Positions 9,934 through 55,229 of a DNA stretch of 64,000 nt are shown here, one piece after another. This stretch comes from Oscillospiraceae bacterium (GTDB lineage Bacteria; Bacillota; Clostridia; Oscillospirales; Ruminococcaceae). Every line of letters starts with the position of its first letter. Position 1 is the stretch's first letter. Below the pieces are notes generated by a model. The model worked only from the letters and a program-made list of their open reading frames with translations. It had not been told where the DNA came from and searched no databases. The DNA lies in assembly GCA_017847885.1 (NCBI GenBank), contig JAGAUA010000011.1:16770-80769 (forward strand). Reading direction: 5' to 3'. Both the position numbers and the translations under genes were made by a program.

Positions 9934-11700
9934 TCAATTCATCGCCGTATAAAGCTTGTAGTAGTCGCCCTTTTTCGCCATAAGCTCGTCATGTGTTCCG
10001 CACTCCTTTATGCCCCGGTCGGAAACATACATTATCTTGTCGCAGTTCTTTATTGTGGACAGACGGTGTGCGATAATGAACGATGTTCTTCCCTCAAGAA
10101 GCCTTTGAAGTCCCTCCTGCAAAAGCTTTTCCGTTTTTGCGTCAATGGAGGAGGTCGCCTCGTCAAGCACAAGTATCTTCGGGTCGCTGATAAGGGTTCT
10201 CGCAAAGGCGATAAGCTGTCTCTGTCCCTGTGAAAGCATTGAACCGCCCTCGTTTATGACGGTGTCATAGCCGTTGGGGAATTCTCTGATAAACTCGTCG
10301 GCGCACACCGTCTTGCACGCCCTTACTATCTCCTCATGGGTCGCGTCAAGCTTTCCATAGCGGATATTTTCCTCGATAGTACCGCTGAAAACAACGCTGT
10401 CCTGAAGCATTATACCCATCTGCGAGCGGAGCGATTTAAGCGTAACATCGGAAATATCGTGTTCATCCACAAGCACCCTGCCCCCGTTAACGTCGTAGAA
10501 ACGGGAGATAAGGTTAACAATAGTGGTCTTGCCTGCGCCCGTAGGCCCAACAAGTGCAACGTTCTCGCCCTTTTTTACGCTGAATGAAAGGTTTTCCAAT
10601 ATGGTCTTGCTCTCGTCGTATGCAAAGGTCACATTTTCAAAGCGGACATTTCCCTCAATACGTGGAAGCTCCTCGGCGTTCTCCTTGTCGTTTACCTTTA
10701 TCGGCTCGTCAAGGGTCTCGAAAATTCTTTCAAGGTATGATACCGCATTAACAAAGTTGTTGAACAGGTTTGCAAGGTTAAGTATCGGCTGCCAGAAGCG
10801 TGAAGCATACCCCGACATTGCAACGATAGTACCGAGAGAGACCGACGCAGGTCCTATTACAAGCAGTCCCACAAAGTAAATGGACGCGGCGATTACTGCG
10901 GATATCGTGTCAACGGTAGGCCAAAGCAGGTTGTTGTATGTAACTGCCTTCATCCAGCTTGTGCGGTACGCCTCGGAAAGCCTGCTGAATATCTCCGCAT
11001 TTTCCTCCTCACGGGCAAAAAGCTGGGTGACCTTTACGCCCACAAGTCCCTCGTGAAGATATGCGTTAAGGTTTGAGCTTTTGTTGTTTACCGTCTGCCA
11101 TGCCTTGCGCTGCCTGTTCTTTATAAACATTATCACCGCCATAAGCACGGGTACTCCGGCAAGTATCACAAGCGCCATTTTCCAGTGCATCGCAAACATG
11201 AACACTATAATGAAAACCAGGTTGAAAAGCTCAAGCACAAAGGTGATGATACCGTTTGAAAGGGTATCGGAAACGCTGTTTACATAGTTGATGATACGCA
11301 CAAGGATTTTTCCGTGGGGACGGCTGTCGTAATACTCAAAGGAAAGCCGCTGGAGATGCTCGAAAAGGTCTGTGCGTATGTCAAAAATGATGTCCTGACC
11401 CACCTTGGTCATAATGCGCGAGCGTATGGTGGAAAAAATAATGTTCACCGCTATCGTCATAAGCAGCAGCACCGCAAGAAGTATAAGCTGCTTTATATTG
11501 CCGCTTGGAATGGTGTTGTCTATGGCGTACTGCGTGATAACGGGAGCAAAAAGCCCGATTATTACCGCAGCCGCACTAAGCCCGAGGGAAAGTATCATAC
11601 GCCATTTGTAACGCCCCACATATATCATTGCGCGTTTAAGGTGCCGTATGTCAAAAGGGCTTTCAAGATTTTCGTCAACGTCAAATTTATTTCTTGCCAT
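9934..11700 (-). CDS. ABC exporter, fused permease/ATPase (heterodimer partner)
   Basis: Six-TM N-terminal domain plus NBD (GPTGAGKTT, LSQGQRQLIAFAR, LVLDEATSSID). Confidence 0.9.
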   Translation of the reverse strand: MARNKFDVDENLESPFDIRHLKRAMIYVGRYKWRMILSLGLSAAAVIIGLFAPVITQYAIDNTIPSGNIKQLILLAVLLLMTIAVNIIFSTIRSRIMTKVGQDIIFDIRTDLFEHLQRLSFEYYDSRPHGKILVRIINYVNSVSDTLSNGIITFVLELFNLVFIIVFMFAMHWKMALVILAGVPVLMAVIMFIKNRQRKAWQTVNNKSSNLNAYLHEGLVGVKVTQLFAREEENAEIFSRLSEAYRTSWMKAVTYNNLLWPTVDTISAVIAASIYFVGLLVIGPASVSLGTIVAMSGYASRFWQPILNLANLFNNFVNAVSYLERIFETLDEPIKVNDKENAEELPRIEGNVRFENVTFAYDESKTILENLSFSVKKGENVALVGPTGAGKTTIVNLISRFYDVNGGRVLVDEHDISDVTLKSLRSQMGIMLQDSVVFSGTIEENIRYGKLDATHEEIVRACKTVCADEFIREFPNGYDTVINEGGSMLSQGQRQLIAFARTLISDPKILVLDEATSSIDAKTEKLLQEGLQRLLEGRTSFIIAHRLSTIKNCDKIMYVSDRGIKECGTHDELMAKKGDYYKLYTAMN

Positions 11701-34995: not shown

Positions 34996-35090
34996 CTGCA
35001 AAGAAGCCTCGCTTTTCCCTTGACACAAAGCGCAATTTCAGCTATAATTCATATAAAGGCAGTAAGCGGACTATCGGAAAGGAGAACGAC

Positions 35091-35864
35091 ATGAAAGCTG
35101 TTATTTTAGCCGGCGGTTTCGGCACGAGGATAAGCGAGGAATCCCACCTGAGACCTAAGCCGATGATCGAGATCGGAGAAATGCCTATACTCTGGCATAT
35201 TATGAAGGAGTACTCCCATTACGGCATCAAAGAATTTATAATCTGCGCAGGCTACAAGCAGCATATTATCAAAGAGTGGTTTGCCAATTATTTTCTGCAT
35301 ACTTCCGATATAACCTTTGATTTTTCCGACAACAACATGATCGTCCACAATAAGCACGCAGAAAACTGGAAGGTCACCATCGTTGACACGGGACTGAAAA
35401 CCCAAACGGGTGGACGTGTTAAAAGGATAAAGGAGCATATCGGCAATGAGTCATTCCTGCTTACATACGGCGACGCCGTGTCTGATATGAACATAGACGA
35501 GCTGATAGATTTTCATAAATCCCACGGCAAGATAGGCACTATATCGCTATATAATTTCGGTCAGAGCAAGGGCGTTGTAGAGGTAAAGGAAAACAAAATC
35601 ACCGCGTTCCGTGAAAAATCCGATTTGGACGGCGACCTTATCAACATCGGCTATATGGTGTTTGAGCCTGCGATATTCGATTATATTTCAGGCGATGAAA
35701 TGCCGCTGGAAACAGAGCCTTTTGCCTCTCTTATAAAGGAAGACCAGCTCTGCGGTTATGTTCACAGAGGCTTCTGGCAGTGTATGGATACGCTAAGAGA
35801 AAAGCAGCGGCTTGAGCAATACTGGGAGTCGGGAGACGCTCCTTGGAAGGTGTGGAACGACTGA
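35091..35864 (+). CDS. rfbF: Glucose-1-phosphate cytidylyltransferase
   Basis: MKAVILAGGFGTRISEESHLRPKPMIEIG, 257 aa, typical of RfbF/DdhA. Confidence 0.92.
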   Translation: MKAVILAGGFGTRISEESHLRPKPMIEIGEMPILWHIMKEYSHYGIKEFIICAGYKQHIIKEWFANYFLHTSDITFDFSDNNMIVHNKHAENWKVTIVDTGLKTQTGGRVKRIKEHIGNESFLLTYGDAVSDMNIDELIDFHKSHGKIGTISLYNFGQSKGVVEVKENKITAFREKSDLDGDLINIGYMVFEPAIFDYISGDEMPLETEPFASLIKEDQLCGYVHRGFWQCMDTLREKQRLEQYWESGDAPWKVWND

Positions 35865-38893: not shown

Positions 38894-40237
38894 ATGAGTA
38901 ATTGGACAAGCGAAGCCGAAGCACGTCAACAGATAAAAGCTATGGTAGCAGAATATTACCATGATTTTATGGAAAAAAAAGACGCATTTAAACCCGGCGA
39001 CCGCATAAGCTATGCTTCACGGGTATTCGATGAAAAGGAAATGTGCAGCCTGACAGATGCCGTTTTGGATTTCTGGCTGACAACAGGCAGGTTTTCCGAC
39101 GAATTTGAACGCAATTTTGCCGAGTGGATAGGCGTGAAATATGCACATCTTGTCAACAGCGGCTCTTCCGCAAACCTTATTGCGTTTTCCGTTCTGACCG
39201 CTCCCGAGCTTGGCGAGCGGCAGATAAAGCGCGGCGATGAGGTCATCACCGTTGCCGGCGGCTTTCCCACTACCGTTACGCCGATACTTCAGTATGGCGC
39301 AATACCCGTATTTGTTGACGTGACTGTTCCACAGTACAACATTGATGTTACAAAGCTTGAAGCCGCTTTGAGCGATAAGACAAAGGCGGTCATGATAGCG
39401 CACACCTTGGGTAATCCCTTTGACCTGTCTGCGGTAAAGGCCTTCTGCGATAAGCATGGTTTATGGCTTGTGGAGGATAACTGCGACGCCCTCGGCACGG
39501 AGTACACCATTGACGGAGTAACCAAATTCACAGGCACATGGGGCGATATCGGAACAAGCAGCTTCTATCCGCCCCACCATATGACAATGGGAGAAGGCGG
39601 CTGCGTTTATACCAATGACCCGATGCTTCATCGCCTTATACTCTCCTACCGCGACTGGGGTCGGGACTGCATCTGCCCGTCGGGACGGGATAATTTTTGC
39701 GGACGCCGTTTTGACGGACAATACGGCGAGCTGCCCCGCGGATACGACCACAAATATGTTTACAGCCATTTCGGATATAACCTCAAAGTTACCGACCTGC
39801 AAGCCGCTGTTGGCGTGGAGCAGCTGAAAAAGTTCCCGTCCTTTATTGAGCGGCGCCGCCATAACTGGGACAGGCTGCGAAATGCGCTGAAATGTGTTCG
39901 GGATAAAATTATCTTGCCCGAGCCTGCGGAAAACAGCAGACCCTCATGGTTCGGCTTTCTCATTTCCGTGAAGCCCGAAACGGGTCTTGACAGAAATAAC
40001 GTTACCCGTTATATTGAGGAGCATAATATCCAAACAAGGCTTTTATTCAGCGGCAATCTTATCAAGCACCCCTGCTTTGACCATATCCGCGGCACCGACG
40101 CATACCGCGTGGTCGGAGAGCTTTCCAACACCGATTTCATCATGAATAACAGCTTTTGGGTGGGTGTGTATCCCGGCATGAGCGATGAGATGATAGATCA
40201 TATGGCAAAGATTATCATAGAAGCTGTGAATAAGTAA
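38894..40237 (+). CDS. rfbH: CDP-6-deoxy-D-xylo-4-hexulose 3-dehydrase (E1, RfbH/DdhC type; DegT fold)
   Basis: 447 aa DegT/DnrJ-like protein. It has SFYPPHHMTMGEGG, with His at the position of the usual PLP lysine. It is adjacent to rfbF and rfbG. Confidence 0.85.
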   Translation: MSNWTSEAEARQQIKAMVAEYYHDFMEKKDAFKPGDRISYASRVFDEKEMCSLTDAVLDFWLTTGRFSDEFERNFAEWIGVKYAHLVNSGSSANLIAFSVLTAPELGERQIKRGDEVITVAGGFPTTVTPILQYGAIPVFVDVTVPQYNIDVTKLEAALSDKTKAVMIAHTLGNPFDLSAVKAFCDKHGLWLVEDNCDALGTEYTIDGVTKFTGTWGDIGTSSFYPPHHMTMGEGGCVYTNDPMLHRLILSYRDWGRDCICPSGRDNFCGRRFDGQYGELPRGYDHKYVYSHFGYNLKVTDLQAAVGVEQLKKFPSFIERRRHNWDRLRNALKCVRDKIILPEPAENSRPSWFGFLISVKPETGLDRNNVTRYIEEHNIQTRLLFSGNLIKHPCFDHIRGTDAYRVVGELSNTDFIMNNSFWVGVYPGMSDEMIDHMAKIIIEAVNK

Positions 40238-40306
40238 ATAATATTATTTTTGCAGTAAAGGACAAAATGGGTGTTGGAAAACTTTTATTGATATACCAAT
40301 AAAAGT

Positions 40307-40335
40307 TTGCAAAAAACAGGGAAATATGTTATAAT
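40307..40335 (+). promoter_or_regulatory. SigA-type promoter immediately upstream of repeat copy 1
   Basis: TTGCAA-17 nt-TATAAT with TGt extended -10. The predicted TSS is near 40342. Confidence 0.6.
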
Positions 40336-40345
40336 AGAGGTATAA

Positions 40346-40484
40346 GTTTGAAAATAAATTTTCAAACCCGAATTTTGTTTTCCTTGCTGCTGCAAGGGAT
40401 TTGCTTAGCCGGCTTTGTCAGTTTCAAACCGCAAAACATCGGAAAGGAGTGCATTTTCCCTTTGGGGAAATGGTCATAAAAATG
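40346..40484 (+). repeat. Repeated ~137-nt leader, copy 1 (5' UTR of first FkbM gene)
   Basis: About 90 percent identical by eye to 46561-46696. The 3' 62 nt have only 3 differences. Confidence 0.9.
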
Positions 40485-41621
40485 ATTGACAATGAATTAT
40501 TAATGTTTTTGCAAACAGTTCCAAATGAAACAGACTTATTTGTAAAACAGCTTAAAGCCGAACAAGATAATAAGAAAATATATTTATATGGCTGCGGTAA
40601 TCACGTCAGATTTGTTGCTGATTATTTAAAATACCATGATATTAAGATAACGGCTATACTGGATACATTTAAAGAAGGCATTTTTTCCGGGATCCCTGTT
40701 ATTCGTTATTCCGATTTTCTTGCTGAAAAACCCGATCCGGAAAAATGTATAATTATTATTTCTGCTCCGGCAAAAGCAAAGGAAATTTCAGATAATCTAA
40801 AGAGATCCGGCAATTGGAACTTTTGGCTGTTTTCTTCAGTATTAGGCATATTTATGAGCGATCTTGACGAATACAGAAACTATCTTGCCCAAAACTGGGA
40901 TGAATTTATTAAATTTTCCAATTCATTGGAAGACGATTTGTCGCGAAAAACTCTTGAGTGTGTTCTAAAAGGCAAGGTCTCGGGAGATCCAAAATATTTT
41001 GCGGAATGTTATGCCCCGAATCAATATTATCCAAATGATATTATTAAATTTTCCGACAATGAAGTTATGGTAGATCTGGGAGCTTATGATGGAGATTCAC
41101 TGTCAGAATTCATTAAAGTTTGTCCCGAATATAGATCTGCTTATTGCTTTGAACCCCAGGAAGAATATTTCAATAAACTAAACACGATTGTCAAGAAACA
41201 GCAAAAATTAGGGAAAAATGTCCATGCAATAATGAAAGGAGCATGGGAGAAAAGCTGCAAACTCCAATTTAGGCAAAATACCGGAATAGGCGGAAGCTTT
41301 TCACAAGATCCTTGTGATGAAAATGCGGAAAATATATGCTTTCTTGATGTAGCATCTGTTGATGAAGAAGTTAAAGAGCCGATCACATATATGAAAATGG
41401 ATATTGAGGGCTCTGAGCTTGCTGCACTTCACGGTGCAAAACGACAGATTTCTGAGAATAAACCTAAGCTGGCAGTCTGTGTATACCACAAAACAGAGGA
41501 TTTTCTTGATATATGGAATTATTTGCGAAGCCTTGTTCCGGAATATAAATTTTATTTGCGTCACCATATGAAAACTGAAGTATCAGAAACAGTATTGTAT
41601 GCCATTACCGATATAAAATAA
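40482..41621 (+). CDS. FkbM-family methyltransferase with NeuD-like N-terminal Rossmann region (paralog 1)
   Basis: 379 aa, colinear with paralog 2. I chose the start by alignment with paralog 2 (MIDNELLMFLQTVPNE vs MLNNELLEFLKSVPNE). The C-terminal half is FkbM-like (VDLGAYDGDS...MDIEGSE). Confidence 0.8.
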   Translation: MIDNELLMFLQTVPNETDLFVKQLKAEQDNKKIYLYGCGNHVRFVADYLKYHDIKITAILDTFKEGIFSGIPVIRYSDFLAEKPDPEKCIIIISAPAKAKEISDNLKRSGNWNFWLFSSVLGIFMSDLDEYRNYLAQNWDEFIKFSNSLEDDLSRKTLECVLKGKVSGDPKYFAECYAPNQYYPNDIIKFSDNEVMVDLGAYDGDSLSEFIKVCPEYRSAYCFEPQEEYFNKLNTIVKKQQKLGKNVHAIMKGAWEKSCKLQFRQNTGIGGSFSQDPCDENAENICFLDVASVDEEVKEPITYMKMDIEGSELAALHGAKRQISENKPKLAVCVYHKTEDFLDIWNYLRSLVPEYKFYLRHHMKTEVSETVLYAITDIK

Positions 41622-41639
41622 AAGAAAAGAGGAATAAAA

Positions 41640-42779
41640 ATGTTAAATAATGAATTATTGGAATTTTTAAAATCAGTTCCAAATGAAACGAAATTATTTG
41701 TAGAAAAGCTTAAAGCTGAACAAGGAGATAAAAAAATATACTTATTCGGCTGCGGCAATCATGTCAGAGTGGTTGTTGACTTTCTAAGACGTCGGAATTT
41801 TGATATAACTGCGATTATAGACACCTTCAAAGAAGGAGAGCTTTCCGGAATCCCTGTTATTCGTTATTCCGATTTCCTCGCTGAAAAACCCGATCCGGAA
41901 AAATGTATAATTATTATTTCTGCTCCGTCAAAAGCAAAGGAAATTACAGATACTTTAAGGAAATCCAATGATTGGAACATTAAAACATTTACAGTTGGAT
42001 TGAACGCCTTTATTGATGATATTGATGAATACAGAAACTATCTCGCCCAAAACTGGAATGAGCTTATTGAATTTGCTGATTCATTGGAAGATGATTTTTC
42101 GCGAAAAACTCTTGAATGTGTTCTAAAAGGCAGGGTCTCGGGAGATCCAAAATACTTTGCGGAATGTTATGCTGCCAATCAATATTATCCAAATGATATT
42201 ATTAAATTTTCCGATAATGAAGTTATGGTGGATCTTGGAGCTTATGATGGAGATTCACTTTCGGAATTCATTAAAGTTTGTCCCGAATATAGATCTGCTT
42301 ATTGCTTTGAACCACAGGAAGAATATTTCAATAAATTAAACGCGATCGTCATGGAACAACAAAAATTAGGGAAAGGCACCCATGCAATAATGAAAGGAGC
42401 ATGGGAGAAAAGCTGCAAGCTGAAATTTATACAAAACATGGGAACCGGCGGAAGCTTTTTACAAGATTCTTGTGATGCAAATGCGGAAAATATATGCTTT
42501 CTTGATGTAGCAGCTGTTGATGAAGAAGTTAAAGAGCCGATCACATATATGAAAATGGATATTGAGGGCTCTGAGCTTGCTGCACTTCATGGTGCAAAAC
42601 ATCAGATTTCTGAGAACAAACCTAAGCTGGCAATTTCCGTATATCATAAAATTGAAGATTTTCTCGACATTTGGAATTATTTGCGCAGTCTTGTTCCTGA
42701 ATATAAGTTTTATCTGCGTCATCATGTGGAGTATGAGATGCCGGATACGGTTTTGTACGCTGTTGCTGATACAAAATAA
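41640..42779 (+). CDS. FkbM-family methyltransferase (paralog 2, tandem duplicate)
   Basis: About 80 percent amino-acid identity to paralog 1 by eye, with long identical nucleotide runs. Confidence 0.85.
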   Translation: MLNNELLEFLKSVPNETKLFVEKLKAEQGDKKIYLFGCGNHVRVVVDFLRRRNFDITAIIDTFKEGELSGIPVIRYSDFLAEKPDPEKCIIIISAPSKAKEITDTLRKSNDWNIKTFTVGLNAFIDDIDEYRNYLAQNWNELIEFADSLEDDFSRKTLECVLKGRVSGDPKYFAECYAANQYYPNDIIKFSDNEVMVDLGAYDGDSLSEFIKVCPEYRSAYCFEPQEEYFNKLNAIVMEQQKLGKGTHAIMKGAWEKSCKLKFIQNMGTGGSFLQDSCDANAENICFLDVAAVDEEVKEPITYMKMDIEGSELAALHGAKHQISENKPKLAISVYHKIEDFLDIWNYLRSLVPEYKFYLRHHVEYEMPDTVLYAVADTK

Positions 42780-42863
42780 AAGAAAGTATTAAGAATATCA
42801 AAAAACGTATTTTACGGTATGTGAGGATTTGGTTAGTTCTTATGCTGATGCAATGACTGCAGA

Positions 42864-43544
42864 ATGGAGATTATTATGCAAATGAGTTTGACAAAGGACG
42901 ATCTGATCAGATATGTTGGGAGACAGTTGGAAATGTTCTTTCCGGATGGAATGAAATTTGATATAAGTCAGCATATCTCGTCATACAATCTTGCACTTGA
43001 ACGGCTGGAGTATTGTCTTGATTCAATTTGTGTCAAAGGATATCATGATGAAAAAGGCAATGTGACATTCTCCCATCTGCACGCTGATCAGTATGCAACG
43101 TTCATATGGTTCTTCAGCAATTCGGTCTGGAGGCTTGAGGAGAATGATTTTTTGAGCAGTAAGCTTCTTCAGCTGAACAGGTTATTGCATCAGATATTTA
43201 TTTCATACAAATGTGATATGCCGGATCACTTTTTTTTAGGGCATCCTATAGGAACTGTTTTAGGTAATGCAAAGTATGGGGATTTCTTAGCAGTTCTTCA
43301 AGGTGTTACCGTAAACACCAATAATGATTTGAAGATAGGAAAAGGTGTTTTCTTGGGAGCAAATTCGAAAATAATCGGAAGCAAACCAATCGGAGACAGA
43401 GCTTCTGTTGCAGTAGGTACACTACTATTTGAAACCTCTGTCCCGGACAATCATGTTGCAATGAATATAGATGGAAAAACCATTATACGCAAAAGGAAAA
43501 GGGAAAAATGTGTGGCTCAGAGATATTTTAACATAGATATTTAA
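42864..43544 (+). CDS. Left-handed beta-helix (hexapeptide) acyltransferase, serine-acetyltransferase-like
   Basis: GHPIGTVLGNAKYGDFLAVLQGVTVNTNNDLKIGKGVFLGANSKIIG. An alternative start at 42876 follows GGAGA. Confidence 0.75.
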   Translation: MEIIMQMSLTKDDLIRYVGRQLEMFFPDGMKFDISQHISSYNLALERLEYCLDSICVKGYHDEKGNVTFSHLHADQYATFIWFFSNSVWRLEENDFLSSKLLQLNRLLHQIFISYKCDMPDHFFLGHPIGTVLGNAKYGDFLAVLQGVTVNTNNDLKIGKGVFLGANSKIIGSKPIGDRASVAVGTLLFETSVPDNHVAMNIDGKTIIRKRKREKCVAQRYFNIDI

Positions 43545-43668
43545 GAGTCTCTTATATAAAGAAACTCAATTTTTAAGTTTTGCGAATTTGTTTATACTTT
43601 ACTGTGTTCACATAGATGTATTTGCACATCTGTTTTATGTGAACAAATTTCAAAAATAGGAGATAAAA

Positions 43669-45471
43669 ATGAAAATACGTGTTGCTGATTATATTGCTCA
43701 ATTTTTTGTTGAAAACGGAATAACTCAATTGTTTTCAGTTGTTGGCGGAGGAGCCATGCATCTGAATAATGCATTTGGTCTGGAAAAAAGGCTCAATGTT
43801 ACATACAACCATCACGAACAGGCATCGGCTATTGCAGCTGAAAGCTACAGCCGTGTGAACAACAAGGTTGCGGCAGTATGCGTTACAAGCGGACCGGGCG
43901 GTACAAATGCCCTTACAGGCGTTCTGTGTGCATGGCAGGATAATCTGCCGATGATCGTCGTTTCGGGACAGGTTCGTTATGATATAACTGTAGACAGCAC
44001 CGGTTTGAATCTGCGTCAGTTCGGTGAGCAGGAATATTATATCATACGCTCTGTTTCACCTATGACCAAGTATGCAGTAATGATAACAGATGCCAAAACA
44101 ATAAAGTATCATCTTTCAAAGGCTCTGCATCTTGCTACTACAGGTCGCCGCGGGCCGGTATGGATAGATGTGCCGCTGAATATACAGGGACAGGAAATTG
44201 ATACTGATGATTTGATAGAATATGTGCCTGAATCAGATTTCGGGGCATATAAAGCTGATATAGATAACATTGTACGTGAGATCTCATCTGCAAACCGTCC
44301 GGTTTTCATTGCCGGTTCCGGACTGCGCACCTCCGGCGCACTTGAAAAGTTCAGAGAACTTGCCGAAAAGCTGAATATACCTGTAGTTTGCCCAACAAGC
44401 ACTGTGGATTACTTTACCCCGTCAGAAAAAAAATACTTTGGAATGTTCGGTACATTCGGCGGCAGAACCGGTAATTTTATAGTTCAAAATGCTGACCTGC
44501 TTATTTCACTTGGTGCAAGATTGTCATTCAAACAGATAGGTTTTAATTTTGAACATTTTTCACCCCAATCACGCAGAATAGTAGTTGATGCAGATGCGGA
44601 AGAACTGAAAAAGCCTACGATCCGTATAGATATTCCAATATGCGCTGATGTTGCAGACGTTGTGTCAGCATTGCTGGAACGTGATATTGAAACAAAGACG
44701 GAAGAAAAAATGCAGTGGATGGAATATTGCAGATTTTTGAAAAACAGGTTTGCTACTTCTGCTGATACTGAAAGAAAATCAATAAGTGCATATCGTTTTT
44801 CAGAGGTGTTTTTTGAAAAGGCAGACGAAAATGCTGTCTGTGTATTGGGAAACAATACCGCGGCGGTTTCTCTTCTCCAGTGCGGAATAAAGAAAAAAGG
44901 ACAAAGAATGTACGGCAATGTAAACTGCGGTACAATGGGATACGACCTGCCGGCTGCTATCGGTGCGGCATTTGCTTCCGGAAAGACTGTGTTCTGTCTT
45001 ACCGGCGAGGGTACTTTGCAGATGAATTTGCAGGAACTTCAGACAGTGGTGCATAACAACCTGCCGGTTAAGATAGTTGTATTTAACAATAATTCCTATC
45101 AGGCAATAGTTGCAACTCAGAAGAACTTTTTCAACGGCGTTTTTTGCGGAGCCACAAATGATTCGGGAATAAGCTTCCCTTCATTCAAAAAGCTTGCTGA
45201 CTGCTATGATTTCCCGTTTAAATCTATAAGCAGGTCTGATGAGCTTGAAGCGGCAGTTGACTGGCTTTTAAATATTGAAGGACGTGCAATTTTAGAGCTT
45301 GTTCAGACTGAGCCTGACCCGATCATGCCTAAGCTTTCAAGTAAAAAGCTTAATGACGGCAGCATTGTGTCACCGCCTATTGATGACCTGTTCCCGTTTT
45401 TATCAGAAGAAGAATATGAAAAGTGCCGATACATAAATTTTGTTAAGGCAAATACAGAAACAGTATTATAA
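43669..45471 (+). CDS. Thiamine-diphosphate enzyme of the acetolactate-synthase superfamily (YerE-like candidate)
   Basis: N-terminal Pyr domain (HEQASAIAAESYSR, TSGPGGTNA) and C-terminal PP domain (GTMGYDLPAAIGAA...GEGTLQMNLQEL...NN). Confidence 0.85.
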   Translation: MKIRVADYIAQFFVENGITQLFSVVGGGAMHLNNAFGLEKRLNVTYNHHEQASAIAAESYSRVNNKVAAVCVTSGPGGTNALTGVLCAWQDNLPMIVVSGQVRYDITVDSTGLNLRQFGEQEYYIIRSVSPMTKYAVMITDAKTIKYHLSKALHLATTGRRGPVWIDVPLNIQGQEIDTDDLIEYVPESDFGAYKADIDNIVREISSANRPVFIAGSGLRTSGALEKFRELAEKLNIPVVCPTSTVDYFTPSEKKYFGMFGTFGGRTGNFIVQNADLLISLGARLSFKQIGFNFEHFSPQSRRIVVDADAEELKKPTIRIDIPICADVADVVSALLERDIETKTEEKMQWMEYCRFLKNRFATSADTERKSISAYRFSEVFFEKADENAVCVLGNNTAAVSLLQCGIKKKGQRMYGNVNCGTMGYDLPAAIGAAFASGKTVFCLTGEGTLQMNLQELQTVVHNNLPVKIVVFNNNSYQAIVATQKNFFNGVFCGATNDSGISFPSFKKLADCYDFPFKSISRSDELEAAVDWLLNIEGRAILELVQTEPDPIMPKLSSKKLNDGSIVSPPIDDLFPFLSEEEYEKCRYINFVKANTETVL

Positions 45472-45570
45472 ACGTAATCTGAATAAGATAAACCATATAG
45501 ATAATTAAAGAAATGATGTGTTGCAGTTTTGAAAACATTTAATATTGAAAATATTGCCGTAGGAAAAGAA

Positions 45571-46566
45571 ATGCTTGTTATCCCGGAAATCGGTATAAAT
45601 CACGGCGGCAGCCTTGAGGTCGCAAAGCTTATGATCGATGCTGCTGCAAATGCAGGTGCAAAAATAGTTAAGCACCAGACCCATATTGTAGATGACGAGA
45701 TGTCCCATGCGGCAAAACACGTAATTCCGGGTAATTCTAAAAAATCAATATATGATGTTATGGAGGAATGTGCGCTTTCAGAAAGCGAAGAGCTTGAGAT
45801 GATGCGCTATGCTGAAAGCAGGGGACTCGTATTCATGAGTACGCCCTTTTCAAGAGCAGCAGCGGACAGACTTGAAAAATTCGGAGTGTCCGCCTATAAA
45901 ATCGGTTCGGGGGAAATGAATAATTATCCGCTTATTGAGCATATTGCTGACTTCGGCAAACCGATGATCGTTTCCACCGGCATGAATGATATCAAATCAA
46001 TCGAAAAAACGGTAAATATACTTGAACGAAAAAATGTGAAATACGCACTTCTGCATACTACCAACATTTACCCCACAAAACCTGAACAGGTAAGACTTGG
46101 AGCAATGCTTGAAATGGCAGAAGCATTTCCCGATGTACCGTTCGGACTTTCAGACCATACGCTTAACAACAATTCATGTATAGCCGCTGCCGCTTTGGGT
46201 GCAACAATATTTGAACGTCATTTTACTGACAGCAAAAGCAGAGAAGGAAATGACATTGTATGCTCTATGGACGGGCATGAGCTTTCAGAGCTTATAAAAG
46301 CAGTCAATGAAGTTAAGCTGATGCGCGGCGGTGAAAAGAGTGCCCTTGCCGATGAACAGGTCACAATAGATTTTGCTTTCGCAACAGTAGTTTCGATCAA
46401 GCCGGTCGCAAAGGGCGACGTGTTCAGCAAAGAAAATATATGGGTAAAAAGACCGGGAACAGGCGAAATTCCGGCTGTGGATTATCCTAAAATACTTGGG
46501 AAAAAAGCAGCCTGCAATATTCCGTCAGATACACATATAACTCTTGATATGGTGGAAGAAGTTTGA
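45571..46566 (+). CDS. neuB: N-acetylneuraminate (nonulosonate) synthase family protein with C-terminal SAF domain
   Basis: [14 protein letters not shown]...KHQTH...KIGSGE. The ORF track offers an upstream TTG at 45529. The ATG at 45571 matches usual NeuB N-termini. Confidence 0.85.
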
Positions 46567-46696
46567 AAAAAATTCAAACCCGAGTTTTGTTTTCCTCGCT
46601 GCCGCAAGGAATTTTCTTAGCTGACTTTGTCAGTTTAAAACCGCAAAACATCGGAAAGGAGTGCATTTCCCCTTTGGGAAAATGGTCATAAAAATG
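46561..46696 (+). repeat. Repeated ~137-nt leader, copy 2 (between neuB-like and neuC-like genes)
   Basis: It starts on the neuB stop codon (GTTTGA) and ends at the neuC ATG. See copy 1. Confidence 0.9.
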
Positions 46697-48865: not shown

Positions 48866-50950
48866 TTATTTACGGTTATGCAGTTTATATTTCAAAATTC
48901 CTATTTCGGGATCAGCCGGACAAATCTTTTCAAGCTCAAGCAGCGTGCTTTCCGCAGTGGAAATATCCCCCGCGTCGATCATGCTGCGAATATTTTTCTT
49001 TACCGCAGCAGCCATTTCCGCAAGCTCTGAACGGACGCTTTTCTTCTGCACAGCCTCACTTTCGATAACCTTGCGGTACTCCGAAACAAACGGTGCAAAA
49101 TCGGGGCAAACCTTTATCAGCCTGCGCATTTCGCTGATACAGGTCTGATAATCCTTTCTTTCCCGTGCTTCGGTTATGCCGTGAACGATAATTCCCGCAC
49201 GAATATCCCCCGGGATATTTTCCTCATTGGGGAATTCGCTCTGCCATCTTGCAGCGATCTTACCGAACATTTCAAAAAGCTTTGTAATATCCTTACCAGA
49301 ATTAAGCGCTTCCACCATTGCCCAGCCGTATAAAGACGCGGCGTTCACAAGCGCGTCCGACGAAAGCATACAGATGTCATACTCATCAAGCAGGCAGGCA
49401 TACTCCGAAAAATCAGCGTATAATTCATGCACGAAGCTGCCGGCTTTAAAGTCGTCCGCCGTTAAAAAGCAGGATATATCCATGCTGCATTTTAACATCA
49501 TGCAGAGTATATCTGTATTGCCGAATGCTCCGTATTTTTTCGTAAAACTCTCGGCCTGCTCATATTGAAGAACATTGTCAATGAAGTATCCGCGATAAAT
49601 TTCAACTGCATCGTCAACGCAGGGAACATACTCCGAAAATTCCGACATGACGCTTAACAGCTCTTCGGGCTTGTCCGAAGAAAACATTTTGCCGCGAAGA
49701 ACTTGGAAAAACAGCTTTCTGTTGTTATCGTCAAGAGTGCTTACAAGCTTCTTTATGCTTTTCCAGCCGATATGCTCCATGATCTCGGCTCTGTCGCGGA
49801 AATGTACAAGCATATAATCCTTGTCGTCAAGATACTTTTCTATAGGGAATGCCTTCAAATATTCCGCGGCGGTGTTATATTTCTGCGTCATCACGCAAGA
49901 TTTAAAAAACATAAAATAAATATTTTTTAAATTTCTGTCACCTACTTTTACCGCAGAATAAAGCAGGTCATCAGTATTAAGCTTTCCGCTTTTGTAGGAT
50001 TTGTACACCTTGAAAAACTGTAGAAAATCATAAATTGCCTTATTAAACTGCTCAGTACGGAAATATGCTTCTCCGCGCATTGCATACATATTAACATCAT
50101 TTGCAAGTACCTGCGTATGGGACGGATTATCGCTTCCAAAATAATTATTGCAGGTCTCGATAACTCCAGGATAATCATTATAGCATGAAATTAAAAGGCT
50201 TGCCTTATTATTGTAATACTGAGTTATGGCAATAATGCTATGGTCAAGGTTATCCAAACCCATGTTTATGTATTTAAGTGCTTTTTCATGGTTATTAATT
50301 ATATTATAGCAGTCTGAAATTTCTCTGTAAGCGTTGAAATCAACGTCTTGATTTTCAAGGCTCTTAAACAGCATTTCAAGATTTCTTTTGCTTTTTACAT
50401 ACGCTTGTTCGGTCACTTCGCCGTTATTGCTATAAAAATATCCGTAATGATCTGCAACAGTACTAAATTTTTTAACAGGACTATGTACCGGACATAACGC
50501 CTCATGAATTGCATTTACAAAACAAACAGCAGAGTATCTATTGGTAAGCCGAAGCGCATTTGAATCTGTATATCTGCTTAAATCGACTTCATCAAAATAA
50601 GAGCGCACTATATAAGAGGCACTTCCGTATGACTTATACTCTCCCGAATTAAAAAAGCTTATTATCTCATCGCAGGACTGAAAAACTTCATCGGCGTCAA
50701 GAAACATATACCATTCTCCGACGGATTTTTCCATAGTAAAATTACGTGCAGCCGAAAAGTCGTCTATCCATTCAAAGTAATAAACCTTGTCGGTAAATTT
50801 CTTTGCTATCTCAACGGTATTATCCGTTGAACCCGTATCGGCAATAATAAGCTCGCTGTCCACCTTTTCAAGAATAGGCTTTAATGCGGTAAGGCACTTT
50901 TCAAGATACTTTTCCTCATTTTTAACTATCATTCCGATTGACAAAAGCAT
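48866..50950 (-). CDS. GT2 glycosyltransferase fused to a long TPR-like helical domain (candidate flagellin glycosyltransferase)
   Basis: LSIGMIVKNEEKYLEKCL...ADTGSTDNT...DADE. I chose the start at 50950, preceded by GGGAGGA with a 7-nt spacer. It lies directly downstream of a flagellin gene. Confidence 0.8.
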   Translation of the reverse strand: MLLSIGMIVKNEEKYLEKCLTALKPILEKVDSELIIADTGSTDNTVEIAKKFTDKVYYFEWIDDFSAARNFTMEKSVGEWYMFLDADEVFQSCDEIISFFNSGEYKSYGSASYIVRSYFDEVDLSRYTDSNALRLTNRYSAVCFVNAIHEALCPVHSPVKKFSTVADHYGYFYSNNGEVTEQAYVKSKRNLEMLFKSLENQDVDFNAYREISDCYNIINNHEKALKYINMGLDNLDHSIIAITQYYNNKASLLISCYNDYPGVIETCNNYFGSDNPSHTQVLANDVNMYAMRGEAYFRTEQFNKAIYDFLQFFKVYKSYKSGKLNTDDLLYSAVKVGDRNLKNIYFMFFKSCVMTQKYNTAAEYLKAFPIEKYLDDKDYMLVHFRDRAEIMEHIGWKSIKKLVSTLDDNNRKLFFQVLRGKMFSSDKPEELLSVMSEFSEYVPCVDDAVEIYRGYFIDNVLQYEQAESFTKKYGAFGNTDILCMMLKCSMDISCFLTADDFKAGSFVHELYADFSEYACLLDEYDICMLSSDALVNAASLYGWAMVEALNSGKDITKLFEMFGKIAARWQSEFPNEENIPGDIRAGIIVHGITEARERKDYQTCISEMRRLIKVCPDFAPFVSEYRKVIESEAVQKKSVRSELAEMAAAVKKNIRSMIDAGDISTAESTLLELEKICPADPEIGILKYKLHNRK

Positions 50951-51035
50951 ATCTATATCCTCCCAAAATAAAATCTTATAATTGATATCATTTTTAAATT
51001 TCAAATTTTTTGCCGCTTAAAAATAACATCAATTA

Positions 51036-51106: not shown

Positions 51107-52924
51107 TTACTGGAGGAGTGAGAGAACGCCCTGAGGCAGCTGGTTTGCCTGAGCAAGCATAGACTGAGATGCCTGGCTGAGGATCTGCTGCTTTGTGAAG
51201 TTCATCATCTCTTCTGCCATGTTTGTATCACGGATACGAGACTCAGCAGAAGTAAGGTTCTCAGTTGTAACGTTGAGGTTGTCGATCTTGTGTTCGAGAC
51301 GGTTCTGAACAGCACCGAAGGAACCTCTTACCATGGAAACCTTGTTGATAGCGTTGTCGATCTTGTCGATAGCAGCGTTAGCAGACTCCTGAGTTGTGAG
51401 AGAAAGCTTATCTGTACCGAGACCTCTTGCGGAGCAGTCGAGGTCAGCCTTAAGATCGCCAAGGCCGTTAGAAGTATACTCGAATGAGAAGTTTACGCTG
51501 TCCTTAGTTCTTGCGCCAACCTGAAGTGTGAGGTTGTCAGCATAAGTAAGGGGAGCTGAAGCTGCATTGTTGGAGTTGGATCTTGAAACGTTACCTGTCT
51601 TAGCAACTTCGATTGAAGGTGCAGCAGCTGCGTCATACTTGGACTTTTCAATACCGATCTTGTAAGAAATATTACCTACAGAAGTATCAGTATCTGTAGC
51701 AGCCTTAGCAGTAATTGTTCCAATTGTTACACTGCTTGTTTCATCCTTAATTGTAAGAACACCTGCATCTGTTGTAGTGAAAGAGAATTCAGAATTGCCG
51801 ATCTTAATTTTTGTACCAGCGGTATTACCTGTAATAGCAGTTCCATCTTTAAGGGTGAGCTTGAAATCGCCAGCCTTAGATGCTGTTTTGTTCTTATAAG
51901 CAGCATCAAACTGTGCTCCGTCAAGAAGATCCATAAGCTTGTCAATATCTTCTGTCATTTTAGCATCTGTAAGACCTGTGTCAAGTTTAACCTTAACATC
52001 AGCATCTTTAAGCTTGATCGAACCCTCTGTGAAGTTTGTGCTGTCGGAAACTGTTGCACCTGCGTTTGTGGGAGCAGAAATACCGTTTGCAGGATTGTTA
52101 AATGTAAGAGTGATCGTATCGCCATTGCCGAGCTTAGTCTGGTCAACAACTACGTTAGCAACTGTTACGGAATTGATCTCAACAGCGAAACCGCCGTTTG
52201 CAGTTTTAGCGCAAGTAATGCTACCTGTGCTTGCACCGTTTGTTGCACCGGTTGCAGACCAAGTACCATCAGCCTGGTTAAACTTAAAGGTGATGTCAAC
52301 AGAGTCAGGACCGTTTGTTGCAGGCTTACCAGCTTCTCTTGTCCACTGACCGTTAAGTACCTTCCAAGCAACGCTTGCTGTAGTACCGTTATCCCAAGCC
52401 TGAGCGTCGAGTACGTTTACATCGCCCTTGCCAAGCTTTGTAGCAGCCTTTGTGCCGTTCTCGTAGTCGAACTTGCCGTTGATAGCCTTTGTGCCGTCAG
52501 CCATCTGACCACCGTTAAGAGCAACAACACCGTTGAAGTCTGTGTCAGCGATCTGGTTGAGCTCGTCGTTCAGCTGGTTGAATTCGAGCTGGATAGCTTC
52601 ACGGTCAACGTCGTCCTGGTAAGAACCGTTAGCAGACTGAGCAGCAAGAGTCTTCATTCTCTGGAGAATGGAGTCTGTCTCTGTGAGAGCACCCTCATAT
52701 GTCTGAACCATGGAGATACCGTCCTGAGCGTTCTTTACAGCCTGTGTAAGACCGCCGATCTGAGATCTCATCTTTTCGGAAACTGCGAGACCTGCAGCGT
52801 TATCGCCTGCACGGTTGATTGCGTAACCGGAAGAAAGCTTTTCGAGAGATTTGGAAAGCTTGTTGTTGTTGATACCAAAGTATCTGTTAGCGTTTATCGC
52901 TGTTAAGTTGTGCTGTACTACCAT
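51107..52924 (-). CDS. fliC: Flagellin (paralog A, 605 aa, large Ser/Thr-rich variable middle)
   Basis: MVVQHNLTAINANR...LSSGYAINRAGDNAAGLAVSEKMR N-terminus and ...MLAQANQLPQGVLSLLQ C-terminus. Confidence 0.97.
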   Translation of the reverse strand: MVVQHNLTAINANRYFGINNNKLSKSLEKLSSGYAINRAGDNAAGLAVSEKMRSQIGGLTQAVKNAQDGISMVQTYEGALTETDSILQRMKTLAAQSANGSYQDDVDREAIQLEFNQLNDELNQIADTDFNGVVALNGGQMADGTKAINGKFDYENGTKAATKLGKGDVNVLDAQAWDNGTTASVAWKVLNGQWTREAGKPATNGPDSVDITFKFNQADGTWSATGATNGASTGSITCAKTANGGFAVEINSVTVANVVVDQTKLGNGDTITLTFNNPANGISAPTNAGATVSDSTNFTEGSIKLKDADVKVKLDTGLTDAKMTEDIDKLMDLLDGAQFDAAYKNKTASKAGDFKLTLKDGTAITGNTAGTKIKIGNSEFSFTTTDAGVLTIKDETSSVTIGTITAKAATDTDTSVGNISYKIGIEKSKYDAAAAPSIEVAKTGNVSRSNSNNAASAPLTYADNLTLQVGARTKDSVNFSFEYTSNGLGDLKADLDCSARGLGTDKLSLTTQESANAAIDKIDNAINKVSMVRGSFGAVQNRLEHKIDNLNVTTENLTSAESRIRDTNMAEEMMNFTKQQILSQASQSMLAQANQLPQGVLSLLQ

Positions 52925-53321: not shown

Positions 53322-55229
53322 ATGGTAGTACAGCACAATTTAACAGCGATGAACGCTAACAGATACTTCGGTATCAACAATTCTAAGCTTTCCAAGTCTC
53401 TGGAAAAACTTTCTTCCGGTTACGCGATCAACCGTGCAGGCGATAACGCAGCAGGCCTCGCAGTTTCCGAAAAGATGAGAAGCCAGATCGGCGGTCTTAA
53501 TCAGGCTGTAAAGAACGCTCAGGACGGTATCTCAATGGTTCAGACATTTGAAGGTGCTCTCACAGAAACAGACTCCATTCTCCAGAGAATGAAAGTCCTT
53601 GCAACTCAGTCTGCAAACGGTTCTTACGATGATCCCGTTGACCGTAACGCAATCGAGCAGGAATTCCTCCAGTTGAACGACGAACTCGACCAGATCGCTG
53701 ACACAGACTTCAACGGCGTTGTTGTTCTTAACGGCGGTGTAATGGCTGACGGTACAAAAGCGGATCCTGAAACAGGTCTTATCAACTATGCGATTGCTGC
53801 TGATGGAGCTGATGAAAAGGTTCAGATTACCGATGCAGATGTAGCTGCATACGACGGAGAAAATGATACTGTAACAACAGCTAAAATTGCTCAAGCTCAG
53901 GTTGGTGACGTAAATACATTTAACAAGGGCGCATATAAAACAGCCGTTTCTGCACTGAAAGAAGAAACTGATGTAACTTATGCTTATGCAGGCGATGGCA
54001 AGTGGATAAACAACTATGATAAGTCTGTTATATCTGCAAAGGAAACAGGCGGATTCGTTGGTCTGTTCGGTGAAACAATCACTCTTGACGACACAGCTCT
54101 TGAAGTTGGCGATACTGTTACTGTAACAGTAACACCCGGCGTTGAAGCTGAAAGTCAGGAAGTTAAGAACTGGGACGCTGTAGCTGCTGTTACAGATGGT
54201 ACTGGTGATACTGATTCTCTTACAGTAACAGGCGATGCAAAATTTGAGATCACCTATACAGGTGCTGATGAAAAAGCTTTGAAGGCTATTGCAGATTTGA
54301 ATGGCGGAACAATTTCTTTAGCTAATAAGGCAGATAGTTCCATGACCACCTTTGCAGTAACAGGTGGAGGATTAAGTGCTGAAACAGATGCAACCAATAC
54401 TGCTAATGCCTTGGCTTCCGGAAAGGTAGCAGCAGTTTATAACGCAGCTACTAATACCGTTGATTTTTATGTTAACAAGGGTACTACACAGATTGCTGCC
54501 GGTCAGGATTTAACTACTAATGCAAATGCAGAGAAAATCGGTACATTTACATTACCAACAATGACATCAACTTCAACAACTGCTAACGACGACAAGGTTG
54601 TGTATACTCTCCAGACAGCAATGAAGTCTGCAGTTACAGGTGAGCCTGCTACAGTTGAACTTGCAGCTGTTCAGACCGTATCTGCTGAAGATAAAGCTGA
54701 TTTTGTTGAAAGAATAAATGCAGGTGTTGACGGCGGAACAGTTGAAGTTTCCAAGTCTAATGCTTTCAGCAAGTCTGAAGCTCAGATGACCTACAAGAAG
54801 AGCATCACTCTCCAGGTTGGTTCAAGAACCAAAGACGCTGTAGACTTTACATTCCAGTATAATTCCACAGCTATGGGCAAGCTTGCTCCTGACCTTAACT
54901 GTACAGCATATGGTCTTGGAACAGATGCGCTTACACTTTCTACTCAGGAAGATGCTAACTACGCTATCGACAAAATCGACCAGGCTATCAACAAGGTTTC
55001 CATGGTAAGAGGTACATTCGGTGCTATCCAGAACCGTCTTGAACACAAGATCGACAACCTCAATGTTACTACAGAGAACCTTACTTCTGCTGAGTCTCGT
55101 ATCCGTGACACTAACATGGCAGAAGAGATGATGAACTTCACAAAGCAGCAGATCCTCAGCCAGGCATCTCAGTCTATGCTTGCTCAGGCAAACCAGCTGC
55201 CTCAGGGCGTTCTCTCACTCCTCCAGTAA
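53322..55229 (+). CDS. fliC: Flagellin (paralog B, 635 aa, different variable middle)
   Basis: The termini are the same as in paralog A. The last 117 nt are identical to paralog A by my reading. Confidence 0.97.
   Translation: MVVQHNLTAMNANRYFGINNSKLSKSLEKLSSGYAINRAGDNAAGLAVSEKMRSQIGGLNQAVKNAQDGISMVQTFEGALTETDSILQRMKVLATQSANGSYDDPVDRNAIEQEFLQLNDELDQIADTDFNGVVVLNGGVMADGTKADPETGLINYAIAADGADEKVQITDADVAAYDGENDTVTTAKIAQAQVGDVNTFNKGAYKTAVSALKEETDVTYAYAGDGKWINNYDKSVISAKETGGFVGLFGETITLDDTALEVGDTVTVTVTPGVEAESQEVKNWDAVAAVTDGTGDTDSLTVTGDAKFEITYTGADEKALKAIADLNGGTISLANKADSSMTTFAVTGGGLSAETDATNTANALASGKVAAVYNAATNTVDFYVNKGTTQIAAGQDLTTNANAEKIGTFTLPTMTSTSTTANDDKVVYTLQTAMKSAVTGEPATVELAAVQTVSAEDKADFVERINAGVDGGTVEVSKSNAFSKSEAQMTYKKSITLQVGSRTKDAVDFTFQYNSTAMGKLAPDLNCTAYGLGTDALTLSTQEDANYAIDKIDQAINKVSMVRGTFGAIQNRLEHKIDNLNVTTENLTSAESRIRDTNMAEEMMNFTKQQILSQASQSMLAQANQLPQGVLSLLQ

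Follow-up and report, generated by a model that had tools for sequence, protein, structure and literature searches.

What is the origin, and what may be the role, of a sequence of about 130 nt that stands twice, in the same orientation, in a bacterial flagellin glycosylation island, each time directly before the start codon of a gene? The island belongs to an Oscillospiraceae bacterium and lies on contig JAGAUA010000011.1 (assembly GCA_017847885.1), of which we analysed the 64,000 nt from position 16,770 to 80,769 of the forward strand (this whole stretch is called the window, and positions are counted from its first letter). An initial annotation of this DNA had noticed the two direct repeats and offered three explanations, namely a regulatory leader that acts at the RNA level and is used again for a second cistron, a substrate on which RecA could delete the genes between them, and a scar of modular assembly. 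We propose that the repeat is a sense-oriented insertion of about 130 nt that may act as a portable 5' leader or intercistronic expression module, a reading of the sequences and their predicted folds to which we give a probability of about 0.5. Within this reading, the origin by insertion is well established from sequence comparison and the function is plausible.

The repeat pair and its empty sites in relatives

Global alignment of copy 1 (40346-40484) with copy 2 (46561-46696) gave 126 identical columns out of 139 (90.6%), with 10 mismatches and one 3-column indel, and 59 matches in the last 62 columns, in agreement with the roughly 90% and 59 of 62 first reported for the pair. The longest exact run was 31 nt. 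A 30-mer from the 3' part, searched with up to three mismatches, occurred exactly twice in the window and in none of 100 shuffles; the pair is thus far above chance expectation. Comparison with empty sites refined the limits of the element to 132 nt in copy 1 and 129 nt in copy 2, and the AAAA-ATG found 3' of each is native flank and does not belong to the element. The right limit of copy 1 is set by the homology to FkbM of the related locus L016, which begins at 40478.

40346-40477, + strand: element copy 1, 132 nt, GTTTGAAAAT ... GGTCAT; covariance model score 167.6 bits
40482-41621, + strand: FkbM1, with PglD_N and FkbM methyltransferase domains; first gene after copy 1
45529-46566, + strand: NeuB; stop codon TGA at 46564-46566, contributed by the insertion
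46561-46689, + strand: element copy 2, 129 nt, GTTTGAA...GGTCAT; covariance model score 174.8 bits
46694-47869, + strand: NeuC, hydrolysing UDP-GlcNAc 2-epimerase; gene served by copy 2

The gene boundaries named in the initial annotation held up. ATG 40482, at which copy 1 was said to end, is the start of FkbM1 by comparison with FkbM2 and with the L016 orthologue, and copy 2 does run from the neuB stop codon, which lies inside its first hairpin, to the neuC start at ATG 46694, a start that agrees with the length of 391 aa of nearly all close NeuC homologues. Each window copy holds an extra in-frame ATG 12 nt before the real start (40470 and 46682). A protein search for N-termini reading through the leader (AKHRKGVHFPFGKMVIKM and similar) found none, and look-up of an FkbM1 form beginning at a GTG within the leader returned no record.

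We compared the neuB-neuC junction with the contigs carrying the closest NeuC relatives, namely L015 (88% amino acid identity), L016, L017 and L018 (83%) and L019 (80%). In all related loci fetched, neuB and neuC overlap (ATGA) and have no spacer. BLASTN homology of L015, L016, L017 and L019 to the window stopped at 46559/60 and restarted at 46690-92, with the relatives' own coordinates contiguous over the gap (9997 to 9999, 8726 to 8724 and 8908 to 8907), and the junction is empty in these four loci. Nucleotide identity to the left and right of copy 2 was equal in three relatives (83.2/82.2%, 78.7/78.8% and 74.7/75.1%). Because the flanking homology is contiguous and equally similar in relatives that lack the element, this comparison shows that copy 2 is a clean insertion of about 129 nt into an intact, overlapping and translationally coupled neuB-neuC junction. 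The new stop codon of neuB comes from the insert (GTT TGA). At the other site, FkbM of L016 is a single gene with a plain ribosome-binding site (RBS) and no leader.

Copy 2 was also found in independent assemblies of other sequencing runs (L014 and L025-L027). In a second host strain, diverged by about 1-3%, it was retained with one difference in 129 nt, and the contigs of that strain also contain the first 20 nt of copy 1.

We scanned 185,579 species, each represented by one genome, with a 20-mer taken from the invariant portion of the element, and obtained one true homologue, in an Oscillospiraceae metagenome-assembled genome (L002), and one chance match, in Acetobacter (L001). The L002 homologue sits in sense orientation between fabZ and accC. 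It has in common with the window copies CGAGTTTTGTTTT, followed by a differing central hairpin and then by CCGCAAAACATCGGAAAGGAGTRCATTTCCCCTTGGGAAATGRTCAT; the 3' 60 nt are about 90-97% identical between the two organisms, with the centre replaced. Around the search seed 33 of 34 nt agree, an agreement that is independent of the covariance model, and a model built from the three copies gave L002 a score of 117.6 bits (E 9e-30), the best other match reaching 16 bits. This site is also empty elsewhere: the fabZ-accC spacer measures only 21-26 nt in L020, L021, L023 and L024, and L022 has an unrelated spacer of 114 nt there, the AccC proteins of these five relatives without the element being 88-92% identical to that of L002. 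The element in L002 replaces about 15 nt holding the native RBS, and the native ATTACTATG was kept.

The initial annotation had asked whether further copies exist in the genome and in related islands, and the answer was divided: the L002 homologue is one such copy, and the orthologous sites of the related loci are empty, with no further copy in the window or in about 200 kb of related loci by covariance model R1 and blastn-short. A scan of JGI metagenomes with a 19-mer gave nine loci, all of them chance matches without extended similarity, and neither three IMG/VR pattern scans nor BLAST against plasmids and phages gave a match. The count thus stands at two copies in the 64-kb window and one in 8 kb of L002, three in everything searched. 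Since a homologue lies in the fab/acc operon of L002 and the corresponding sites are empty in relatives, comparison of the loci shows an element that is not specific to the glycan gene cassette and that occurs sporadically before three unrelated genes, encoding a methyltransferase, NeuC and biotin carboxylase.

These findings bear on the idea that the repeats are scars of modular assembly, each marking a seam between gene modules of different origin. The gene order near copy 1 does differ between the window (GT2-DegT) and L016 (DegT-GT2), and FkbM is duplicated in the window. For copy 2, however, the idea fails, as neuB and neuC are equally similar to those of three relatives in which the two genes are contiguous and overlap directly, which leaves no seam at this position, and the same element lies inside a housekeeping fab/acc operon. 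We regard an assembly scar as very improbable.

A possible third copy is suggested by assembly breaks. Four Logan contigs (L003, L004, L028 and L029), which come from two strains and four runs, share an end at 40365, after the first 20 nt of copy 1. In a k=31 graph of the window alone, the sole branch is at the 31-mer common to both copies (40455/6 and 46667/8), and L014 ends at 46667. Because the graph of the window has no branch at 40365, sequence outside the window would share at least 30 nt from about 40336; probably, either another locus in the genome, a third copy, shares sequence from about 40336, or the population is heterogeneous from 40366. We rejected an invertible promoter as the cause: the promoter lies to the left of the break, and the available inverted repeats have a length of only about 10 nt. 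Three of the contigs (L003, L028 and L029) also begin at one base, 33365, in the mgtE upstream region, which suggests another repeated or variable sequence there.

Predicted fold and a possible role in translation initiation

The three copies have a predicted layout in common, in which a first hairpin (P0) is followed by a helix (P1) around a variable insert, an unpaired Shine-Dalgarno (SD) sequence, a further hairpin (P3), 9 nt and the native AUG. The parts in the window are as follows, all of the structures being predicted.

40346-40367, + strand: P0 of copy 1, a 10-bp AT-rich hairpin, GTTTGAAAAT-AA-ATTTTCAAAC
40368-40442, + strand: P1 of copy 1, CCGAAUUUUGU (40368-40378) pairing with GCAAAAC-A-UCGG (40431-40442)
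40441-40449, + strand: SD of copy 1, GGAAAGGAG, unpaired in the minimum-free-energy fold
40452-40472, + strand: P3 of copy 1, CAUUUUCCC-UUU-GGGGAAAUG; its 3' arm holds an additional AUG (AUG#1, 40470-40472) in the FkbM1 frame
40462-40479, + strand: candidate mini-cistron of copy 1, UUG GGG AAA UGG UCA UAA (MGKWS and stop); UUG in the P3 loop, 12 nt after GGAG
46561-46579, + strand: P0 of copy 2
46580-46590 with 46643-46654, + strand: P1 of copy 2
46653-46661, + strand: SD of copy 2
46664-46684, + strand: P3 of copy 2, with AUG#1 at 46682
46674-46691, + strand: candidate mini-cistron of copy 2

The predicted folds were more stable than those of shuffled sequences in all three copies (z-scores of -2.3, -2.5 and -3.1). 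P0 is an AT-rich hairpin that begins at the first base of the element in each of them. In P1, CCGAGUUUUG is predicted to pair with CAAAAC-A-UCGG across the copies, with an A.C mismatch in copy 1 where copy 2 and L002 have G-C; the helix encloses two hairpins in the window copies (40380-40399 and 40408-40422 in copy 1) and one long hairpin in L002. P3 follows 2 nt after the SD in all copies, as CAUUUCCCC-UU(U)-GGGAAAUG with the extra AUG in its 3' arm.

All three copies carry GGAAAGGAG as the SD, predicted to be unpaired. Its duplex with the 3' end of 16S rRNA (anti-SD) was calculated at -12.2 kcal/mol, neighbouring genes giving -4.2 to -12.7 kcal/mol, and it is the only strong SD upstream of FkbM1 and NeuC, with no other SD near the AUG. 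The SD stands 31 nt from the native AUG, 19 nt from AUG#1 and 11-12 nt from the UUG in the P3 loop, compared with 5-7 nt from the start codon in neighbouring genes. The order of GGAG, 2 nt, a hairpin of 19-21 nt, 9 nt and AUG is the same in copy 1, copy 2 and L002, so that the distance from SD to AUG is 30-32 nt along the sequence and 11 nt across the predicted hairpin, a spacing that, in sequence and predicted fold, corresponds to a split translation-initiation region.

If the element works as a leader, it would be co-transcribed with its operon, and P0 together with the closed P1 helix would insulate what lies 3' of them and, in copy 1, cap the 5' end of the mRNA. Ribosomes would bind the exposed SD of 8-9 nt, which is unsurpassed, or nearly so, in strength within the cluster, and P3 would shorten the 30-32 nt between SD and AUG to an effective 11 nt. 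Alternatively, P3 might present the UUG in its loop, such that a mini-cistron of 5-8 codons would be translated and ribosomes would restart at the adjacent AUG. The net effect would be that FkbM1, NeuC and, in L002, AccC gain an autonomous, structure-buffered start that replaces translational coupling or a weak native RBS. P0 and a bound 30S subunit may in addition shield the downstream mRNA from 5'-to-3' decay (RNase J1). Use of the mini-cistron is a conjecture from the reading frames. The mini-ORF of copies 1 and 2 (MGKWS) stops 2 nt before the real AUG and that of L002 (approximately 5452-5426 of L002, - strand) reads MGNDHYYV with a stop that overlaps the real AUG; the GGG of one window copy and the GGA of the other are synonymous in this frame, and the peptide is not conserved in L002.

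Precedents exist for several of these steps. A hairpin in the T4 gene 25 mRNA cuts the spacing between SD and AUG from 27 to 11 nt, and one in gene 38 cuts it from 22 to 5 nt (PMC3014915). The element would resemble these genes in that a hairpin between SD and AUG is predicted to shorten a non-functional spacing (30-32 to 11 nt); the T4 genes, however, are single fixed loci that were tested experimentally, whereas the element is an insertion found at three genes, and its hairpin is a prediction. The STAB-SD of Bacillus thuringiensis cry3A is an SD-like sequence that binds the 3' end of 16S rRNA and blocks RNase J1 (PMC4113751). Like the STAB-SD, with its GAAAGGAGG-like sequence upstream of the initiation region, the element carries GAAAGGAG at a distance of about 100 nt from the predicted 5' end, and a sequence of STAB-SD type is present in it (GAAAGGAGU, -12.2 kcal/mol, predicted to be unpaired). 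The STAB-SD differs from the element, whose SD may be the functional one, in standing about 125 nt away from the start codon and in having no role in initiation.

In synthetic bicistronic designs, a leader cistron with a strong SD ends at the start codon of the target gene, which makes initiation independent of context. The element may be compared with them in that its mini-cistron, opened by the UUG, comes to a stop 2 nt short of the real AUG in the window copies and, in L002, overlaps that AUG. A plastid intercistronic expression element is described as transplantable and as yielding translatable units (PMC2230500). Both of these systems differ from the element in being engineered or organellar, while use of its mini-cistron is conjectural. 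It would be a bolder step to see in the element a natural mobile "plug-and-play" cassette for translation initiation, one that can be inserted before any open reading frame (ORF), converts coupled into context-independent initiation, and spreads in Oscillospiraceae without terminal inverted repeats as a counterpart of the synthetic designs, and we consider this extended claim unlikely.

Several points weigh against a leader function. Every functional step is inferred, because only sequence and predicted folds bear on function. The change in copy 2 between strains (1 in 129 nt) equals that of its neighbours (0.3-1.2%), which gives no sign of special constraint, and the rarity of the element leaves its selective value unproven; it could be neutral. 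The effective spacing, 11 nt, lies at the upper end of the workable range, several of the substitutions between copies 1 and 2 weaken the predicted stems, and 38 of 500 shuffles paired as well as the real alignment. Over the four distinct sequences, 91.8% of cells paired, compared with 31-54% when the partners were slid. Covariance analysis, suggested by the initial annotation in case more copies were found, could draw on these four sequences only and gave no covariation, with one pair changing on both sides. The earlier view of an RNA leader for two cistrons therefore stands in part: sense orientation, a strong SD, a shared predicted fold and a homologue before accC speak for it, and what was given up is the notion of a conserved regulator of the glycan locus, as the element is a sporadic, recent insertion, and the four sequences show no covariation.

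If the leader function proposed here is real, it would mean that an insertion of 130 nt can uncouple neuB and neuC and give neuC its own strong start, a form of operon rewiring after gene transfer, in a flagellin glycosylation island where the ratios of enzymes decide which sugar is made. If the leader works before unrelated genes, it would also be a useful expression part for the poorly tractable gut Clostridia.

The folds could instead belong to a cis-regulatory RNA that responds to a signal, be it a riboswitch, a thermosensor, an attenuator or an operator bound by a protein, and that controls FkbM1 and NeuC together. The identity of the 3' 60 nt in two organisms around a replaced centre, the stability of the predicted fold relative to shuffles, the predicted sequestration of AUG#1 in P3 and a terminator-like hairpin with a U-rich run inside copies 1 and 2 (40380-40399 in copy 1) are what such an RNA might look like. 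Against it, the junction architecture varies, with two inner hairpins in the window and one in L002, where the terminator-like hairpin is absent; the downstream genes (methyltransferase, NeuC and AccC) have no common pathway; the element is missing at the orthologous sites of close relatives; and the SD is unpaired in all predicted folds, so that there is no obvious OFF state. Searches of Rfam gave no family either: Rfam 15 had no match at the gathering threshold in the whole window, and at E values up to 10 around copy 1, copy 2 and L002 there was only noise (E at least 0.09) from unrelated families. A riboswitch or other known RNA family was rejected on this ground, and a signal-responsive RNA of any kind appears quite improbable. 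P0 was also considered, and rejected, as an intrinsic terminator, its stem being AT-rich and separated from the U-run by 5-6 nt, as was the inner hairpin, which is absent in L002.

Mobility, recombination and known repeat families

A further explanation is that the element is selfish or neutral mobile DNA (a miniature transposable element with inverted repeats (MITE), a PATE or an interspersed repeat) which survives where expression of the downstream gene is spared, its SD and hairpins being incidental or serving mobility. Filled and empty sites at two unrelated loci, a sporadic presence among close relatives, hairpins near both ends as in IS200/IS605-derived elements, the hint of a further genomic copy in the four Logan contigs of two strains that stop 20 nt into copy 1, and the absence of extra sequence conservation between strains all fit mobile DNA. 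Features of the ends and the placement of the copies fit it poorly. Terminal inverted repeats were not above those of shuffles: with the first and last 45 nt compared (15 nt of flank and 30 nt of element per end), the best inverted match scored 5-7 against a shuffle mean of 6.3-6.9, and 172-296 of 300 shuffles scored as high. There was no clear target-site duplication; the flanks of copy 2 are A-runs in which at most two extra A residues could be a duplication, and at the L002 junction about 15 nt of native sequence, including the RBS, were replaced and nothing was duplicated. The copy number is very low in everything searched, and each of the three copies, always in sense orientation, leaves exactly 4 nt between its end and the native AUG, an outcome that would be rare under random insertion. 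We therefore consider mobile DNA of this kind possible, though on balance doubtful. Were it correct, the finding would be an ordinary one, adding one more small and rare bacterial repeat family.

Specific mobile or recombining systems were examined as well. A MITE showed the expected contrast of filled and empty sites and was rejected for its lack of terminal inverted repeats and its few copies. PATE elements derived from IS200/IS605 and REP/RAYT elements insert 3' of a fixed target of 4-5 nt and have a cognate Y1 transposase. Here the left flanks have only a terminal AA in common (ATAA, AGAA and GTAA), P0 begins at the very first base and leaves no room for a guide segment, and no transposase gene was present among the annotated ORFs of the window. 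An integron attC site was rejected, as the ends GTTTGAA and GGTCAT fit neither RYYYAAC nor the GTTRRRY core; moreover, five genes stand between the repeats, where an integron cassette has one ORF, and in L002 the copy sits within the fab/acc operon. The template/variable repeat pair of a diversity-generating retroelement was rejected because the 10 mismatches are mixed (A/G, T/C, G/A, G/T, C/T and C/A) and not restricted to adenine, and no reverse transcriptase was found among the annotated neighbouring ORFs. A conserved small ORF on the minus strand was likewise dismissed, its frame being broken by the indel in L002. The insertion junctions, with A-rich microhomology at copy 2 and the 15-nt replacement in L002, look like products of illegitimate or microhomology recombination and do not resemble classical transposition.

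Among natural repeats, co-transcribed ERIC and Correia repeats alter the fate of neighbouring mRNA in an orientation-dependent manner (PMC2229807), and small repeats of this type would be the closest analogues of the element. Like ERIC/IRU and Correia/NEMIS, the element falls within about 100-170 nt, would form structured RNA, lies at transcribed intergenic sites in operons and is filled or empty among relatives. It differs from them in having no terminal inverted repeats, TA ends or clear target-site duplication, in its very low copy number, in its three local domains in place of one long stem-loop, and in a full-strength SD at a fixed distance from the start codon. The CIR repeats of Caulobacter and Brucella have no terminal inverted repeats, and their 5' and 3' sections fold independently into stem-loops (PMC2229807). 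In these respects, and in being interspersed, CIR and the element are alike; CIR, however, carries a methyltransferase site, has many copies, shares no sequence relationship with the element and has no module of SD and start codon. The element is best filed as a new and rare addition to the small structured intergenic insertion elements, unusual in bringing a full initiation module at a fixed distance from the start codon.

The remaining explanation is that the repeats allow RecA-mediated deletion of the 6.2 kb between them, fusing the promoter before copy 1 to neuC and producing a subpopulation with a variant glycan. The genes that would be lost with FkbM1 and NeuB had been named in the initial annotation (two FkbM genes, an acetyltransferase, a thiamine diphosphate (ThDP) enzyme and NeuB), and Pfam and NCBIfam agree with those names.

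41640-42779, + strand: FkbM2, tandem duplicate of FkbM1; its RBS is plain and it has no leader
42864-43544, + strand: hexapeptide-type acetyltransferase (domain search)
43669-45471, + strand: ThDP enzyme, like the large subunit of acetolactate synthase (domain search)

Direct repeats of about 130 nt with 90.6% identity and a 31-nt exact run, in a flagellin glycosylation island, are a setting in which deletion might be looked for, and surface variation is common in loci of this type. An exact run of 31 nt at 10% divergence is, however, near the minimum for efficient homologous recombination. Copy 2 persists in the second strain, and the opening 20 nt of copy 1 are likewise present in contigs of that strain. 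No deletion junction appeared in the short-read contigs, although these end within the repeats and would not have revealed one. Deletion would remove the ThDP enzyme and NeuB and leave NeuC and SDR, which follows NeuC. The ThDP-NeuB-NeuC-SDR block, found conserved in each of the related loci examined (including L015, L016 and L019), would thereby be broken up, giving a dead pathway and not an alternative glycan. It would also be irreversible, and the single copy in L002 indicates that bracketing is not the purpose of the element. We thus set the deletion switch aside as highly unlikely; the repeats are a modest curiosity of operon evolution and not a demonstrated deletion switch.

As a separate observation, the duplication of FkbM1 and FkbM2 spans 40476-41621 and 41634-42779, with a period of 1158 nt and 80-91% nucleotide identity, and the two genes have several exact runs of at least 31 nt in common, L016 having one FkbM only. 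This pair is a better substrate for recombination than the leader repeats.

Promoters and the glycosylation island

The TTGCAA-17-TATAAT promoter noted earlier before copy 1 was recovered by a consensus scan, which added a TG extended -10. Copy 1 stands directly after this promoter, at the head of the transcription unit that runs from FkbM1 to NeuB.

40307-40335, + strand: sigma-70-type promoter, TTGCAA, 17-nt spacer, TG-n-TATAAT; the consensus scan matched 10 of 12 positions, with the TG extended -10 in addition

From its position we infer that transcription would start at about 40342-40344, which would place P0 2-4 nt from the 5' end of the mRNA. Copy 2 had been described as lacking a promoter of its own, and this is borne out: the best candidate for an internal promoter matched only 9 of 12 positions with a poor -10 (AAAAAT) and was rejected.

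Two further observations concern these promoter regions. A near-perfect palindrome of 20+20 nt (TTGGAAAACTTTTATTGATA / TACCAATAAAAGTTTGCAAA) at 40274-40313 overlaps the -35 element upstream of copy 1; either an operator or a hairpin at the 3' end of the RfbH transcript is conceivable, and the palindrome gave a weak, sub-threshold Rfam match to Flavo-1 (E 0.09). The 12-mer ATCGGAAAGGAG from the SD region of the element recurs at 35021-35093, a segment that holds the first sugar-operon promoter (TTGACA-17-TATAAT) and the RBS of the NTP-transferase gene, where the 12-mer lies at this RBS with a normal spacing of about 6 nt. The shared 12-mer may be due to chance or may represent a strong RBS in a house style.

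The flagellin glycosylation island at this locus includes two genes for flagellin.

51107-52924, - strand: flagellin gene
53322-55229, + strand: flagellin gene

An RfbH-like CDP-sugar 3-dehydrase is encoded at 38894-40237 (NF011936, 710 bits), together with the ThDP enzyme (43669-45471), NeuB, NeuC and SDR. We take the combination of an RfbH-like protein with an acetolactate-synthase-like ThDP enzyme to resemble YerE-type branched-chain (yersiniose-like) sugar chemistry, presumably acting on flagellin. Adjoining a flagellin gene, a GT2 glycosyltransferase of 712 aa (48866-51004, - strand) differs by 11.6% between the two strains, compared with 0.3-1.2% in its neighbours, and looks like a local hot spot of recombination or diversification.

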